A stretch of DNA of 64,000 bases from Podarcis vaucheri (taxonomy: Eukaryota), in NCBI GenBank assembly GCA_965113315.1, contig OZ220382.1. One strand, 5' to 3'. The first letter of the stretch is position 1. Every line of letters starts with the position of its first letter. Below, piece by piece: positions 1 through 60,724 of the stretch. The translations under genes and the position numbers were made by a program. Below the pieces are notes generated by a model that was not told where the DNA came from, ran no database searches, and saw nothing but the letters and a program-made list of their open reading frames with translations.

Positions 1-578
1 GCTGAAGAAAGACCTTCTTCAAATAGCATCTGAATGGGTGCTGCCGATAAATCCCACCCCAATCTGTGAATCAGCATGGTAAATTCAGTCCAGTACTCAG
101 GGACAGATCTGCTTCCCTGCTTGCAAGCCATTAACTGTCTGCGCACCACCCCTTCCTCAATGTCGCTGGAAAACATGATATCCATTGCACGAAAGAATTT
201 CATAGTGTCCTTTAGGATATCGTTGTGCGTTGCCATCAGGGGTCGAACCCAGTCTCGCGCGCCCTTCTCAAGATGCCCAATTACAAAAGCAACTCGAGAT
301 TCCTCATCAGGGAACTCATCAAACTGGACATTCAGGGCATATTGCATTTCAGTCCTAAAGGCATGGTAATCCTTGGGGTCCCCCCCAAACTTCTGCACCA
401 ATCCTGGTACCTTTCTGGGGAACTGAGTGGTTCTCCCCTTCTTGTCTGCATCTTGAGCCCTCCTCTCCTCGAGCCTCGCCGTCTGCAGCGCCAGTTGGAC
501 CTCCAATGCTCGGTATCTTTCTTCCAAGCTTGGATCAGCTCCTCCCCCTGCTACTCCGGCTCCGGCTGGGTCGCTCAT
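1..578 (-). CDS. gag: Ty3/Gypsy (sushi/PEG10-like) Gag, N-terminal 192 codons, continues beyond window start
   Basis: Manual translation from ATG at 578-576 is stop-free to base 1: MSDPAGAGVAGGGADPSLEERYRALEVQLALQTARLEERR...QKFGGDPKDYHAFRTEMQYALNVQFDEFPDEESRVAFVIGHLEKGARDWVRP...RRQLMACKQGSRSVPEYWTEFTMLIHRLGWDLSAAPIQMLFEEGLSS. It has an N-terminal coiled-coil, an FxGDP motif, xAxxW, and the QGxRSVxEYxxEF major-homology-like motif of retrotransposon Gag. Starts 45 nt after the LTR. Confidence 0.93.
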   Translation of the reverse strand, partial: MSDPAGAGVAGGGADPSLEERYRALEVQLALQTARLEERRAQDADKKGRTTQFPRKVPGLVQKFGGDPKDYHAFRTEMQYALNVQFDEFPDEESRVAFVIGHLEKGARDWVRPLMATHNDILKDTMKFFRAMDIMFSSDIEEGVVRRQLMACKQGSRSVPEYWTEFTMLIHRLGWDLSAAPIQMLFEEGLSS

Positions 579-610: not shown

Positions 611-621
611 ACTGTCGGACT
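611..621 (-). promoter_or_regulatory. Self-priming primer-binding site (Tf1/sushi type)
   Basis: Minus-sense AGTCCGACAGT, 2 nt after the LTR end, is the exact reverse complement of ACTGTCGGACT at 752-742 inside the LTR. There is no TGG-starting tRNA-type PBS. Confidence 0.75.
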
Positions 622-623
622 GC

Positions 624-1073
624 TATCAGGGGATGATTAGCTGCTTGTGCTTAAAATGGTGCCCCTTCAGAGTTTGTGCGGCCCCACAAACCTCTGTGTG
701 TAACAGAGCTCCTCAGACATGTCTGCTCTAGTCACTATTAGAGTCCGACAGTGGCTGTTTGCGGAAACGCCTCCAACAAAGAAGTTCCTTAACGGAAACA
801 CGTCTCCTGGACTCACGACGTGACAGCTTCCGACGAAGCATGGGTCTCCCTGCAGTTGCTTCTGACACCTCCCCACTATTTTCGCTGGACGTGTCTCTCA
901 CCCCTTTCTCTCCCCTGCTTCCTGCCTGCGTTGCTGCGTCTCTCTCAGTATTACTGAGATCCTCCTCCAGAGACCCCGCGCTCCCCCTGCTGGTCCCTGC
1001 TTTGGCTGTTGAGTCTCTCCCCGTCTCTGGGAGCCCTATCACCTCCTTTCCCTCTGATGTCAGTTCCCTGACA
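624..1073 (-). mobile_element. 5' LTR of the Gypsy element (450 bp)
   Basis: Minus strand starts TGTCAGGG and ends CCCTGATA (terminal inverted repeat CCCTGACA with one C>T). The first 18 nt are identical to the solo LTR at 60291 and the 3' ends align at equal distance from a shared GCAC motif. Lies directly upstream of gag. Confidence 0.88.
728..1072 (-). CDS. LTR(U3)-encoded open frame, 114 aa, no ATG at its start; probable C-terminus of an element ORF read into the 3' LTR
   Basis: Open from LTR base 2 (VRELTSEGKEVIGLPE...RRESRRRVSVKELLCWRRFRKQPLSDSNSD*); homologous at protein level to 60292-60621. Confidence 0.6.
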   Translation of the reverse strand, partial: VRELTSEGKEVIGLPETGRDSTAKAGTSRGSAGSLEEDLSNTERDAATQAGSRGEKGVRDTSSENSGEVSEATAGRPMLRRKLSRRESRRRVSVKELLCWRRFRKQPLSDSNSD

Positions 1074-2489
1074 ATCCTGTATATGTTTTTAGCTTTTTGT
1101 ATTGTATCTGTGTTGTTTTAATATATGTAAGCCACCTTCACTCCCGGTTTGGGTAAAAGGTAGTGTGTTGTAGTTGTTGTTAATCAGCATCCTTTGCAGA
1201 GTGCAGGGGTCCACTATAAAGAAGACACACCAGTGAGAAGGAAAGTGTGGACATTATTCATATGAAGTGCAACCATTTAAAAAGCTGCAGGCATGGCTAT
1301 AATTTTGGTTATTAACATAAGCCACAAAGTCATACCAAATTAAACTAAATTCATCACTTTTACCTTGGTCTCATTCAGTTTCTGTGTTAACTTTTCTAAT
1401 AATGCAATTTACCATATCTTTGTATGGTACTAATAGTTTATATCTGCTCCCACTATGTCTCTCCATTTTTGCTTTTCAGTGGCTTTTTTAAAAATTCAGT
1501 AATATGTAACATCACTTCAGCCAAAGTTTAGTGAAGATGATGGAGAGTGCTTAAGCTGACAACTACAAAAAAAACCTAAGCAACTTTTAGTATGTAATTT
1601 AAATCACTGATGGTTCGCAATCCATCCATGACCAGAAGCTTTTGTTTTCATCGCTGCTGGAACAACAATACTGGATCATTTTCTCCAGTGTGTGAAGCAT
1701 CGCTATTTGCAGCAACGTGAGCTGAAAATATTGGCAATGTGGGTGTATGCAACTTTAATAAAAATGAATGGCTGGGATTCCCCACACTTTTGAAACCCAG
1801 TTGTATGAAATCGCATGTGAACACCTATTTTATTTATTCATTTAGATTTACAGCCCACGCTATAACTGAAGAGTGGATACTTAACTTTTTAAAAAATACA
1901 AAAAAGACATAAAAGAGACAAATACATGGTTTACAACTGCATTATGGATTGGCACATGCATAAATGCATTGACATTCCTTTCAGACAGTTGAACCCCCTG
2001 CCCCGACCCCGTTTATAGTAGCAATTTACTATTTGCTGTAACTCCCACTTGATGTGCCTGGATTCTACAGCAGGGGTCAGCAAAATTTTAGGGCAGTGGA
2101 CTTTTTTGTTTACCTTTTTAAAATGTGGGCACAAAATGGCAGTGGTTGGACTATGTCATAATGCAAAATGGTTGCCATGTGGGACATGACCTAGCACATC
2201 ATGGCTGATGTAGGTGCCTTGTTTTCTAAAGATGCTGCATGGTTGTACCATTTTGTGGGCCTGTCTCTTTTAGATGTGGGAGCCATTTTATGCTATGTTT
2301 AATCCCCAGAGCAGCCATTTTGTAATTGACATCCATGACACTTTCTCAACCCCTGACTCAGGAGCACCAGCGTATGGGTTCTATATAATGGTGAATGTTA
2401 TCACCATTTAAATCAGTCTCCATACAAGTTATGATGCCAAATTCATAAACCCCTGTGCTTTAAAAAGTGGTGGGGATGACAGTCTGATC

Positions 2490-19369: not shown

Positions 19370-20604
19370 TTTTTTTTATAATAATATTTATTAGTTTTCC
19401 AACAAATTGAACACAACACTACAAAAAACCAAAATAGAAAAAATACAATAATACAATGCAATACAAAAAAACACCTACAAAGCACTAACATACAACTAAT
19501 AAAACAAAACAAAAACCATTTAAAACACAGTCCAATTTCAATATCTTATCTTTCTTTCACTAATTTCCACGACTTCCTCACACCTCCCTTTTTGTATTCC
19601 ACTTCTATTAATTATTTCAGCAATTCCTTTCCATCTTCCTCTGTTTTCTATCCTATAATTTTCTTAACACATTCTAACCTTATTTTTCCCTTTAATGCTC
19701 TAATAATCTATTTATACTTAATTCCTTGTAATATTTCTACTAAAGCCATATAACTTCATTCCAACATCTTTCTAACATTCATTAATTTTACAGTATTTCT
19801 GTAAATAGTCTTTAAACTTTTTCCAGTCTTCTTCCACCGACTCTTCTCACTGGTCTCGGATTCTGCCAATCATTTCCGCCAATTCCATGTAGTCCATCAA
19901 CTTCATCTGCCATTCTTCCCTGGTGGGTAAATCTTGTGTCTTCCAATATTTCGCGATGAGTATTCTTGCTGCTGTGGTTGCATACATAAAAAAAGTTCTA
20001 TCCTTCTTTAACACCAATTGGCCGACCATGCCCAGGAGAAAGGCCTCTGGTTTCTTAAGGAAGGTATATTTAAATACCTTTTTCATTTCATTATAAATCA
20101 TCTCCCAGAATGCCTTAGTCCTTGGGCACGTCCACCAAAGGTGAAAGAATATACCTTCAGTCTCATTACATTTCCAACATTTATTATCGGGCAAATGGTA
20201 GATTTTTTGAAGCTTAACTGGTGTCATGTACCACCTATAAATCATTTTCATTAAATTTTCTCTTAAGGCATTACATGCCGTAAATTTCATACCTGTGGTC
20301 CATATCCGTTCCCAGTCAGCCATCATTATGTTATGTCCAACATCTTGTGCCCATTTAATCATAGCTGATTTCACCGTTTCTTCCTGAGTGTTCCATTTCA
20401 ACAGCAAGATATACATTCTTGACAAATTCTTAGTTTTTTGGATTTAACAATTCTGTTTCCAATTTTGATTTTTCCACCTGGAACCCAACTTTTTTGTCCA
20501 ATTTGTATGCCTCCATTATTTGATAGTAATGGAGCCAATCTCGCACTCTTTGTTTTTCAATTTTTCAAAGCTCTGCAATTTTATTCTCTCTCCATCTTGT
20601 TCCA
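19370..20604 (-). mobile_element. 5'-truncated L1 (ORF2 C-terminus, 3' UTR, poly-A)
   Basis: ORF 19847-20425 has the L1 Cys-rich motif CWKCNETEGIFFHLWWTCP..KAFW; T-tract at 19370; 17-bp TSD ATCAGTTTCAAATTTTA at 19353-19369 and 20605-20621. Confidence 0.95.
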
Positions 20605-29968: not shown

Positions 29969-30504
29969 ATAGAGGGCATCAGGCATGGGAAACTTCAAAT
30001 CTGCAGCCCAAATGGAGAATAATTGGGAGTGTGCTTTACATGTGCTCTTGTTCCTCCTTTCAATTCAAGCCAGCTATTCAAAGGATCTTCCTCTGCAGAT
30101 GTGAACCCCAAAGGATTTATTTCTTTTTACTTTGGATCATATGATTTCACTGTGATGTCAGTTGATTGAAAGGCCTATGCGAGGGAGACCTCAGGATTCA
30201 GCACCCCAGCTGAACCCTGTCCTCACCCCTGAAATATGACAATGCACACTCATGCTTGTCACCAGCAAGGGAAATCTGTCCATTTCAGTTGCTCTCCTTT
30301 TCTCATTTTTCCAATCTTAAGTTCAATTCTCCACAATAGCAAGTGCTTTTTTTAAAAAAAAAAAAAAGTCCTCATGACAATTTACCAGCATTTTAGTGCG
30401 CTTTCCTCCTACTATACAATGTTATATGCATTTTTTTAATATACACATTTTGCAAAGCAATTTTCCCTAATGTGTTTTTGTCTGTTATTTCATTAATATG
30501 TGCC

Positions 30505-30790
30505 TTTTCTTTTTCTTCTTTGGCGATCACTTGTAGCCAAGTAAGATTGTCTTCCATGAACACAGTTTTAACAATGAGTCCGTAAGTGACTGTGGAGGCC
30601 AATTCTGGATCCACACATCCTTCCACAGTGGGGACATTGGTTTCCGGGCAGGAGTTGATCACGGTGTGGATTTGCCAAACGTACTTTCTTCTCAGCACGT
30701 TTCTCCCTTGCGCCCTGAGTTCGAGTGTCTTCAAAGCCCATGACACCTTTAGTAAAGGCTGTTCTCCAATTGTATGCAGAACTGACCCTA
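30505..30790 (-). mobile_element. RTE-clade LINE 3' fragment
   Basis: C-terminal C2H2 motif CPHCGRMCGSRIGLHSHLRTH, short 3' UTR and (GAA)-rich tail. Confidence 0.88.
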
Positions 30791-32109
30791 GTATGTGCTT
30801 GTACACATTTCTTGACTGGAGAAAGGGTGGACGTGTTCCTGTATTGTTTCAAAAAGTGCAAATTAGAAAAGTTTGCCATTATACCTGAAACACATTTCTC
30901 CACCCATCCCTACCACCAACTATGCGTTTAACATTCAGCCTCATCCAGCTATGATCTCTGACAAGCAGACCTGCATAACGCACAAATTTACAAACACACA
31001 CTTGCCACACCTGCATTTCACATTCTTTTGGTACGCACTTAGCACCCCTTCAGTGTATTATACACCTAAAAATGTAATTAAGAAGTGGCCCATAGACACC
31101 TGAGCCAATATATCCAGTGCTATGCCTCTTCCTACCAACTGTTTTGACTGACCACAAACCATCAACAATTATAGGGTTTTGCTTTCTTTCTGAGGCTCTC
31201 GCCCTGTTACATTTTAATTAGCAGTTCACACCATGCCTCTCCTTAGTCCAAGTGGCATGCAAGGCTCGAGATAACTGACAGCAATCACTTTATTAGCAGC
31301 TTTGTGAAACCTCTTTGGTCTTCTTAATACACACAGAGAGACACAACCTGAAGCCACACCACCTCTACTGGTGTCATGGAAGGAGGAGACGAGGCAATCA
31401 TACTGGTTCCCATCATTATCATGTTTATCCTGCATCACAAGCTATCAAAGGCTCCCTCTACATGCATTTTATACTGTCTTATCATTGATGTTCTGTAATG
31501 TGTTCTTAACGTTGTACACCACCATGGGATCTTCTGATACAGGGCAGTACATAAATTGAAACAAGAGCAACAACAACTAAAAGTCATACTACAATTGGCA
31601 TTGGTCAACCATCTGGCTGCCATGCAATGTTCCAGTTACAGTTCCTGGAATATCTTGAAAGGCAGTGCTGCATATAATGTATCAAAGTAATCTAACCTAG
31701 ATGTTACCATAGCATGGACAACAGAAGCTGGAATATCCCTGTCCAGATGTGGTCAGCTGCGCTTCCAGCCAAAGCTGTGCCACTGCAGCCACTTGAGCAT
31801 CAGAATCCAGAGATATCAACAAGCAATGCAACTACTTCTTTAGAGGGAGTCCAACCTCATCCAGCACAGGACACACCCCACCCGTCTGGTCCAGGGAATC
31901 ACCTGCTGATAGTAGGGCTTGTTTGGGCTGAGTTTTAGTTTATTGGCTCTCATCCAGACCATTACTGAGGGAGGCATCAGTCTAACACACCCTGCAAAAA
32001 CCCCACACTGAACGTTTCATGGAGTCAAGCAATACTCTCTAAACACAACTCTCTGAAAGTGATTGTCCAAATGGGATCAGAAACACTGCACAGGGATGTC
32101 GGTATGTAT

Positions 32110-40569: not shown

Positions 40570-42213
40570 TATATGCCTGGGGAACAGACCTGAGCGAAGA
40601 CTGCAACACTCCCCAAACTCCACCCTCCAGGCCACCACGGACTGGCTGAATTTGAACTGAGGGCCTGGCAAAGCCCACAATGCTCTGTGGCGGCCTGGGG
40701 GAGTGGCAACAGCTGCAATAAGATGGCAAGACTGTGAGGGTGGCTGAGGCGCCATGACAAGCTACAACCACCACTCACCATTGGATAGGGGGTAAGTGGC
40801 CACTGTTCTTTGTAACAAAGGTCAGATTGCCCTTCTTTAAAAATAAATAACCATCCCAAACTTGAGGTACATTCCACATGTTGACCTGTAATATAGTTTA
40901 TTTCTGTAAACACCCTCTGCCAGAAAGGCTTTATATGTTCACATGTCCACCACATGTGAAATGTTGTACCTATACTATTGTAGCCTCTCCAGCACAGTGA
41001 TGGAGTTTTTTTATTAATATAAGTACACTGTAATGGTGTCAAATGACATTGGTGCATTTTCTCATATCCAAGCTGATACTGATTTTAGTGGATATTTCGC
41101 TAACATATTATTCCAACCCACCTCCACAATCTCTTTCCCTAGATCAGATTTCCATTGCTGTTTGATGGAGTTGCATCCTCCAATTGTTAACTAATTAATT
41201 AACTAACTAATTAAGGTTTTTCTTATTTATTCATTTGTATGTAAAATCAACTTTCCAAAAGATGTTGAAGGTCTCATGGCATGCACTTTAACTTCAGAGT
41301 TTGATATGAAATACACTATTTGATGAACATAAAGCCAATGTGCACCTTGCATTCCAATGTTCAGCTGATATAGGTGAACCATTTTCAAATAAATCAGTTA
41401 GTCTATAAAGGTCATTTCTGAACAACATGTTCTTTCCCTGTCATATAAAAAAGTGGATGCAGTACAAAAGGTATCAATGGTGAGCTTGAAGGAACTAATT
41501 TAGGTGCCCACATGTTCTGTACTTTCAGATCTGCCTTTGCAAATATATTTATCACAGTAACAAAAATATTTTTATTATGTATTCGAAACAATAGACTCAA
41601 TGCTCTCTCTATATATATATCAAACTCCATTTGCTGCCATGTTTTATCATTTGTGTTTTGTCTTATTCCAATTACATTTTGAATATGGCTAGCATTGTAT
41701 CATTGTAAATTAAGGAGAACAAGACCAACCCACTCTGAGCCTGCTGATAGATCACAGCGAATTATAATATGGGTCTTTTACCCTGGTGTACAAAGTTTAC
41801 TACCATAATGTTGCCAGATTTGTGAGAAAATACACCAACAATACATATTTAATTCCATTTTAATGCAGATTATATATATAAAATCTGCATTAAAATAGCA
41901 CAAAATGGCATAAAACGGTGAATTAATGGAGAGCCAGGATAGAATGAACTCATGGGAAAGTGGCATATATCAAAAACAAACTGAACCATTCATTCCGTTT
42001 CCCCCCCTCACTTTCCCAAGTGATCACCAAGACAGCTTATAAATAATAACACAATATCACAAAATAAACAATTTAAAATGAACATAAATCATCAAAAGCG
42101 GTATTAAAGCACAGCAGCAGGTTAAGAAAAGCCAAATACTGTAAATACAAACACTTGATTTATAATAATGATAAAATGGTGATCAGGAGTTGGGATTTTT
42201 ATAGCTCCCTAAT

Positions 42214-42914
42214 GAATATGGTCTGAAGCTCAACATCAAAAAAACAAAGATCATGGCCACTGGTCCCATCACCTCCTGGCAAATAGAAGGGGAAGAAATG
42301 GAGGCAGTGAGAGATTTTACTTTCTTGGGTTCCATTATCACTGCAGATGGTGACAGCAGCCACGAAATTAAAAGACGCCTGCTTCTTGGGAGAAAAGCAA
42401 TGACAAACCTAGACAGCATCTTAAAAAGCAGAGACATCACCTTGCCAACAAAGGTCTGTATAGTTAAAGCTATGGTTTTCCCAGTAGTGATGTATGGAAG
42501 TGAGAGCTGGACAATAAAGAAGGTTGATCGCTGAAGAATTGATGCTTCTGAATTATGGTGCTGGAGGAGACTCTTGAGAGTCCCATGGACTGCAAGAAGA
42601 TCAAACCTATCCATTCTTAAGGAAATCAGTCCTGAGTGCTCACTGGAAGGACAGATCCTGAAGCTGAGGCTCCAATATTTTGGCCACCTCATGAGAAGAG
42701 AAGACTCCCTGGAAAAGACCCTGAAGTTGGGAAAGATGGAGGGCACAAGGAGAAGGGGACGACAGAGGACGAGATGGTTGGACAGTGTTCTCGAAGCAGC
42801 CAACATGAGTTTGACCAAACTGCGGGAGGCAGTGGAAGACAGAAGTGCCTGGCGTGCTCTGGTCCATGGGGTCACGAAGAGTCAGACACGACTAAACAAC
42901 TAAGCAACAACAAC
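42214..42914 (+). mobile_element. 5'-truncated BovB (RTE) LINE
   Basis: GLKLNIKKTKIMATGPITSWQIEGEEMEAVRDFTFLGS...WRALVHGVTKSQTRLNN with one premature TGA at 42532-42534 (CGA decay); (CAA)n tail; candidate TSD AAAATGGT at 42173-42180 and 42915-42922. Confidence 0.96.
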
Positions 42915-60290: not shown

Positions 60291-60724
60291 TGTCAGGGAA
60301 CTGACATCGGAGCCAGAGGTGGAGGCAAGGCTCCCAAGTGATGCTGGAGAAGGGCCCAGCAGGGAGAGAGGCAGCTCATCAGCGGGGGAAGGAAATCAGC
60401 GTAACACCAGGGATAAAGGGGGGCAGATGGGGGAATCGGCGAGGGGGCTCCAGGACTCCTCGTCAGAGACCAGCGGGGAGAGCACGGGTCCTCTGCTACC
60501 CACACCCTCCCTGCGCGGAAGTCTTCCGTGCAGGAAGAGTAGGAGGAGACTTGGCGTCAAACAGCTTTTATGCTGGAAAGGGTTTAAGAAACGCCCACTG
60601 ATGGATTCTGCTAGCGACTGAAACAGCCACGAAGTGAAGGGCTGTCCAGACAGAAAGGTTTAATCAGGCAACCTAGCCAGGAGTGGCGGCAACTTACGCA
60701 CGAGAAACCCCTATTATTATTACA
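60291..60724 (+). mobile_element. Gypsy solo LTR (434 bp), diverged relative of the LTR at 624-1073
   Basis: TGTCA...TTACA ends; perfect 5-bp TSD GTAGC at 60286-60290 and 60725-60729; starts TGTCAGGGAACTGACATC like the other LTR. Confidence 0.93.
60292..60621 (+). CDS. LTR(U3)-encoded open frame, 109 aa
   Basis: VRELTSEPEVEARLP...RKSRRRLGVKQLLCWKGFKKRPLMDSASD*; open from LTR base 2; homologous to 728-1072. Confidence 0.6.
   Translation, partial: VRELTSEPEVEARLPSDAGEGPSRERGSSSAGEGNQRNTRDKGGQMGESARGLQDSSSETSGESTGPLLPTPSLRGSLPCRKSRRRLGVKQLLCWKGFKKRPLMDSASD

Follow-up and report, generated by a model that had tools for sequence, protein, structure and literature searches.

The window, by which we mean the whole 64,000-nucleotide stretch analysed here, contains two LTRs that carry a homologous reading frame, one belonging to a full-length chromovirus and the other standing alone. 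The features concerned are the following.

1..575, minus strand: first part of gag (Retrotrans_gag, with a zinc knuckle later in gag), which runs on beyond the left edge of the window, where the pol frame overlaps the gag end
611..621, minus strand: PBS of the self-priming type, 2 nt past the LTR
624..1073, minus strand: 5' LTR (TG...TGATA, 450 bp) belonging to a complete Gypsy chromovirus of subfamily A
728..1072, minus strand: frame of 114 codons plus stop TAG, from LTR base 2; in the 3' LTR it is Pol residues 1233-1346
731..898, minus strand: conserved C-terminal module of a Ser/acidic stretch, an Arg-rich stretch and an LLCW helix
742..752, minus strand: 11-mer, LTR nt 322-332, complementary to the PBS and overlapping the PLSDS codons; putative RNA 5' end and self-primer at the U3/R border
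758..820, minus strand: basic core RRESRRRVSVKELLCWRRFRK, with a bipartite-NLS-like pattern and a predicted short helix
1074..1078, minus strand: TSD AGGAT, 5 bp
60291..60724, plus strand: solo LTR, 434 bp, TG...CA, of the older subfamily B, with TSD GTAGC on both sides
60292..60621, plus strand: frame of 109 codons plus stop TGA, homologous to the A peptide and an orphan here, without upstream Pol

Both frames translate as the first-pass annotation had claimed, and the homology that it proposed between the two LTRs, 59 kb apart, holds. The pair nevertheless comes from different elements of different subfamilies in opposite orientation, and a reading of the two LTRs as ends of one element is ruled out by their opposite strands and their own TSDs. 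The LTR peptides of A and B align with 47% identity (BLASTP, E 5e-18). Over the ungapped last 56 codons, the earlier count of 30 identical residues, 18 of them using different codons, proved exact, and the 80 nucleotide differences are distributed 25/18/37 by codon position. In 10,000 column permutations, identities averaged 13.9 and never exceeded 23, and synonymous codons averaged 5.9 with a maximum of 15, so that neither observed count was reached once.

The 3' LTR of the left copy lies 5116 bp further on, left of the window, and is 100% identical to the 5' LTR. In the fetched remainder of the element, pol is one 1346-aa stop-free frame in the order protease-RT-RNaseH-integrase-SH3-chromodomain-acidic tail-PPT-LTR, with a Pfam Chromo match at Pol residues 1099-1148 (E 1.5e-11) and an HP1-like fold there. 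The annotation had proposed checking which ORF is in frame over the PPT/3' LTR junction, and that ORF is Pol, with no stop. It had also left a choice between the Pol C terminus and an accessory ORF; the former, placed after the chromodomain, is confirmed, and an accessory ORF with its own start was rejected, because the module has no conserved Met position and its frame runs on from Pol without a break. In the four elements of subfamily B that were fetched, the corresponding frame likewise continues from the chromodomain with no intervening stop.

The chromovirus order of gag and then PR-RT-RH-IN is present, as is the chromodomain after the integrase, and the element with the left LTR is an intact, very young Tf1/sushi-type chromovirus; the trees that include it use unnamed outgroups. 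Its nearest protein relatives are Podarcis muralis entries, which makes a lacertid lizard the likely host, and the integrase is 99% identical to P0004. By hand count, around 56 of the 150 genome matches listed sit in the 1346-aa frame. The gag and pol frames overlap by 85 nt in different frames (copy L011, 5568-5652, minus strand), an arrangement that suggests a putative -1 frameshift; no canonical slippery heptamer was confirmed in the overlap. In the youngest subfamily, the LTR ends in ...TGATA rather than ...TGACA (window 624-628, minus strand; L011 and L012), and this non-canonical terminus seems to have been integrated as such, because it occurs in both LTRs with perfect TSDs. In two rearranged copies, L002 and L106, the self-priming 11-mer marks a junction between the LTR and inverted LTR sequence; these copies are possibly aberrant priming products.

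Selection on the tail was estimated from 24 natural copies, which are the 27 representatives at 96.5% identity minus L118 (LTR frame shifted), L117 and L127 (both shifted before the chromodomain). Because the 119 copies behind the representatives had been chosen for an open chromodomain-to-stop frame, frame integrity was counted only on a separate 80-copy sample. Codon models gave a dN/dS of 0.21 for the module (first 48 codons; p~1e-33), 0.62 for the linker and 0.15 for the chromodomain, together with 0.18 and 0.28 for two FxGF regions (24 copies) and 0.085 for the integrase core (17 of the 24 copies). The LTR tail is thus a variable linker followed by a conserved module. As controls, 40 column shuffles ranged from 0.60 to 2.0, the other frames gave 1.9-2.8 and contained stops, and the antisense frame in the same register gave 0.40. 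For the module, 16 CpG-free columns gave 0.19, an LTR-only tree 0.21 and the part upstream of the promoter zone 0.265 (p 5e-19). In the 69 young copies, the pN/pS of shared variants was 0.17 for the module and 0.99 for the linker, and the comparison of private with shared variants in the module reached only p=0.063. Ser, Arg and Leu codons in the module switch synonymously between codon blocks, no other frame is free of stops throughout the 24 copies, and the coding part of the LTR changes length by triplets, whereas beyond the stop codon the LTR varies by 104-110 nt. The purifying selection that had been suggested for the LTR peptide is therefore borne out (0.21 in the module, against 0.60-2.0 in the shuffles), and from anatomy and selection together we regard it as practically certain that the LTR frame is coding. 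An antisense stop-free frame in the same codon register also runs over the tail and LTR (L011 1616-2215, plus strand; window 732-1121, plus strand); as a gene, this 199-aa frame was rejected, and it is probably a shadow of the coding frame.

The same stretch of DNA has a second use. The PBS is complementary to LTR nt 322-332 (11 nt), with matched changes between subfamilies, and the pairing is present in 66 of 69 full-length copies, across four sequence versions. Self-priming of this kind is the Tf1/sushi arrangement, as the consulted parts of PMC4600332 and PMC6317226 describe it. From the complementarity we infer an RNA 5' end at LTR nt 322; a transcript starting there would have 107 of the 114 codons in U3, so that neither window copy is likely to be translated. 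Relative to the inferred start, the LLCW codons occupy the TATA position, about 32 to 21 bases upstream, and PLSDS is encoded on the start site and primer; the likely core promoter, the start site and the self-priming 11-mer thus share sequence with the last ~20 codons. Because of this overlap, part of their conservation probably acts at the DNA or RNA level, as is also indicated by the fixed codons CCA for Pro107 and GAC for Asp114 (24/24 each); given that selection persists upstream of the promoter zone, however, DNA constraint explains the last residues only. A Trp codon lies equally far from the primer site in A and in the more distant family Z, which has a TATA-like word there. Four runs gave contigs, guessed to be RNA, over parts of the region; in X1 and in X6 a single piece reaches a little way past the LTR start and is too short to bridge it.

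The exact PPT/LTR junction pattern occurs at least 2149 times in the 1.6-Gb genome. We fetched 80 of the 100 places listed on contig C1, and the LTR frame was open in all 80 3' LTRs, 72 of which were flagged as in frame with the chromodomain. Frame lengths were 100, 109, 114 and 115 codons, apart from one of 66 (an in-frame deletion) and one of 170 (a rearranged copy). Frequent frameshifts or stops in young LTRs had been named as evidence that would count against coding; no closed LTR frame was found among the 80. The first 400 LTR bases are identical in 44 of 69 full-length copies, and the A-type family has been active very recently. The 100 listed junctions show an even distribution across the first 70.6 Mb of C1 (a density of 1.42 per Mb, compared with 1.33 genome-wide), so no regional target is evident among the C1 insertions. 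Flanks of 69 insertions have a GC content of 0.435 and a CpG o/e of 0.37 versus 0.22 in this single window, which is a one-window comparison only.

Pol read-through into the LTR is also found in much more distant families of this genome. Sister subfamilies at ~60% DNA identity retain the layout. Family Z, with an integrase 58% identical, has a 1566-aa Pol of which 209 residues lie in a 756-bp LTR in seven of eight fetched elements; its tail has a dN/dS of 0.40 (p 1.6e-5, 15 copies), a value biased downwards because the copies are the top protein matches. The LTR of family X (L238) contributes 114 codons, with a basic stretch and FFHCWKK at their end. In the tree, subfamilies A-H, X, Z, W (L231) and P0007 fall on one side of a 100/98 split, and family Y and six unnamed short-tailed chromoviruses on the other. 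The LTR frame of family Y (L227-L232, L237) ends in PRRSARL just before a TATA box and is in phase with the chromodomain in 16 of 34 3' LTRs, the phase losses being attributable to a G run, ahead of the PPT, that differs in length between copies; its dN/dS of 0.73 is not significant. A profile of the module matched the LTR tail of family X (11.1 bits, 0/200 shuffles as good) and P0007 (0/200), and family W weakly; it detected neither the similar-looking end of family Z (8/200 shuffles as good) nor family Y. With the P0007 tail as query, no match was returned in this genome.

Searches of the tail against Pfam, PDB sequences and the Atlas gave no match, and Foldseek recovered the chromodomain only. 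AlphaFold predicts a disordered tail with one helix over VKELLCWRRFRK (pLDDT about 70 in one prediction, about 50 in another) and ~190 disordered residues between chromodomain and module. The NLS-like character noted at first pass is seen as a bipartite pattern in 23 of 24 copies, a raw count, in an Arg-rich stretch of the kind that readily fits such a pattern; we took the pattern to be two basic residues, a spacer of 10-12 and three of five basic. Within the basic core, the third position of RRESR/RREAR is Glu in 23 of 24 copies; Cys99 is invariant in all 24.

Just before the PPT lie two motifs, each consisting of a hydrophobic anchor or helix, 8-9 acidic residues and FxGF, which resemble TIMs and are putative examples of them. 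The second FxGF is present in 23 of 24 copies, and the first reads FxGF in 13, LEGF in 8 and is altered in 3; helices are predicted just before each acidic linker with low confidence (pLDDT about 50-85). Family W and P0007 have one hydrophobic-acidic-FxGF motif each, families X and Y gave no TIM match, and Z has a bare FxGF only. In L197/L231 and P0007, a textbook-looking hydrophobic-acidic-FxGF motif directly follows the chromodomain. The host genome has PSIP1- and HDGFL2-like IBD exons. Taking the chromodomain cage to be the three aromatics at the positions scored, and aligning to P0014, we found it incomplete in A-H and Z, where the third position is Glu; the first aromatic is kept only in A-type copies and the second is lost in Z, and family Y keeps all three.

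We propose that the frame forms the last 114 residues of Pol, encoded in the 3' LTR and kept by purifying selection. With RNA starting at nt 322, the 3' LTR alone would supply a U3 to be read, and reverse transcription would each time copy the coding U3 into the 5' LTR, which would account for the silent copies in 5' and solo LTRs. The tail would presumably stay on the integrase after processing. By analogy with Ty1 integrase, the Arg-rich/LLCW module may act as a bipartite NLS and host-binding linker; the two helix-acidic-FxGF motifs, judged by their sequence, are likely to bind LEDGF/HRP2-type domains, and motifs and module would supplement a chromodomain with an incomplete aromatic cage. 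That the peptide is a disordered integrase tail whose basic end likely imports the integration complex and may tether it to chromatin is the reading we favour, with some reserve; for import plus tethering as a pair of putative functions, we put the chances only slightly above even. A broader proposal holds that, in one clade of lizard chromoviruses, a new integrase tail built partly within the LTR, comprising two LEDGF/HRP2-motif mimics and an LTR-coded import/chromatin module, supplements a chromodomain in decay; it is tentative and on present evidence probably claims too much. If true, a retrotransposon would reach the lentiviral tethering factor by motif mimicry, as a vertebrate parallel to the plant CR motif, and in several lineages U3 would be promoter and evolving targeting cassette at once.

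Other readings of the tail must be weighed against this one. The module could mainly anchor to the nucleosome acidic patch through an HMGN/Dsup-like Arg motif, with nuclear import secondary. RRESR/RREAR shares the arginine spacing of the RRSAR/RRSSR motifs in the consulted part of PMC12487698, and the family Y tail carries PRRSARL outright, yet the RRSxR core occurs only in family Y and is absent from the A-H clade. There, the near-constant Glu occupies the position at which the same part of that source models phospho-Ser as repelling the patch, and family Y is a separate lineage, with a non-significant dN/dS and no profile match to the module. The acidic-patch reading thus fits family Y better than the A-H clade, and as an account of the module we consider it unlikely. 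A slightly poorer prospect is a small separate protein, released from Pol by the element's protease or active within the particle, that would serve as an RNA/DNA-binding or membrane-associated factor (a basic amphipathic helix plus Cys) instead of tethering integrase. The long predicted disorder before the module, the linker's freedom to vary in length while keeping frame (100-115 aa; 209 aa in family Z) and the invariant Cys99 would all suit a separate protein; against it, no cleavage site was identified, and C-terminal integrase extensions of Ty1, Ty5 and CRM are described as import or targeting parts in the portions consulted of PMC7459421 and PMC3059260.

The read-through could also be a tolerated appendage, conserved through promoter, primer and RNA elements of U3. 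The dual use of the last ~20 codons, the Trp codon offset common to A and Z with the TATA-like word in Z, and the frequent loss of phase in family Y all point that way. This account, however, leaves aside the low dN/dS upstream of the promoter zone, the codon-block switches for Ser, Arg and Leu, the single stop-free frame in 24 copies and the triplet length changes, in contrast to the 104-110 nt variation after the stop; it is largely refuted for the A-H clade, and we give it hardly any credence as an account of the module, though it may hold for family Y. Our preferred reading remains an integrase tail.

The LTR-coded Pol tail is real, with strong evidence that it codes, and its layout has previously been described in plant centromeric elements. 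HIV nef and MMTV sag are ORFs in retroviral U3, and like the lizard frame their coding sequence overlaps the PPT and U3; they are, however, separate accessory proteins made from spliced RNAs, whereas the lizard frame is the end of Pol. Closer in layout is the plant CRM group A, in which Pol runs into the 3' LTR and ends in the CR motif/CHDCR, as described in the consulted sections of PMC3059260, PMC3605345 and PMC6317226, where Beta Bingo1-4 and 7 are likewise said to extend into the LTR. CRM elements differ in using a tRNA-Met primer where the lizard element self-primes; group A is without an ordinary chromodomain, of which the lizard element has one upstream of the PPT; and CRM gathers at centromeres, whereas the lizard element is dispersed over the part of C1 covered. 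The lizard element also has FxGF motifs, no Pfam match links the peptides, and the likeness is one of layout. Because primer, chromodomain and distribution all differ, it is probably convergent.

Domain order, chromodomain, self-priming, TGTYA...TNACA ends and the 5-bp TSD are those of Tf1/sushi (V-clade) elements in the parts consulted of PMC6317226, PMC4600332 and PMC3601003; in contrast, the unnamed database chromoviruses P0014, P0015 and P0017-P0019 end 54-75 residues after the chromodomain start, and the lizard elements continue for 243-416. Ty1 integrase offers a similar C-terminal basic-linker-basic module with an import and tethering model (PMC7459421, in part), but it is copia-type, is not LTR-encoded and binds Pol III AC40, and we claim no sequence relation. 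The TIMs of JPO2, IWS1, KMT2A and others share the helix, an acidic Ser/Thr linker of 8-16 residues and FxGF (PMC9987994, in part), but they belong to host proteins; the lizard motifs occur twice, with 8-9-residue linkers, just before the PPT and outside the LTR, and lentiviral integrase reaches LEDGF through its own surface. Our search of the literature on vertebrate elements, which had Repbase, Dfam and subscription papers outside its range, returned no description of Pol reading into the LTR, and in PMC3601003, which treats LTR structure, the terms 'ORF' and 'reading frame' do not appear. In UniRef, the tail is already inside automatically predicted Podarcis proteins.

Nuclear entry and insertion-site choice of vertebrate LTR retrotransposons are poorly known, and short selected peptide motifs make both testable by binding and localisation assays. 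An LTR under dual constraint, as promoter and primer and as protein, also matters for LTR-divergence dating and for spurious gene models at solo LTRs.

The 41-Mb contig C41, which may be a repeat-rich sex chromosome, is strongly enriched in older and diverged members of several families. Other repeats in the window include LINE reverse-transcriptase fragments (19847-20443, 42183-42903 and 30393-30909) and numerous SINE/MITE-like sequences, typical of squamates and assigned to putative families.
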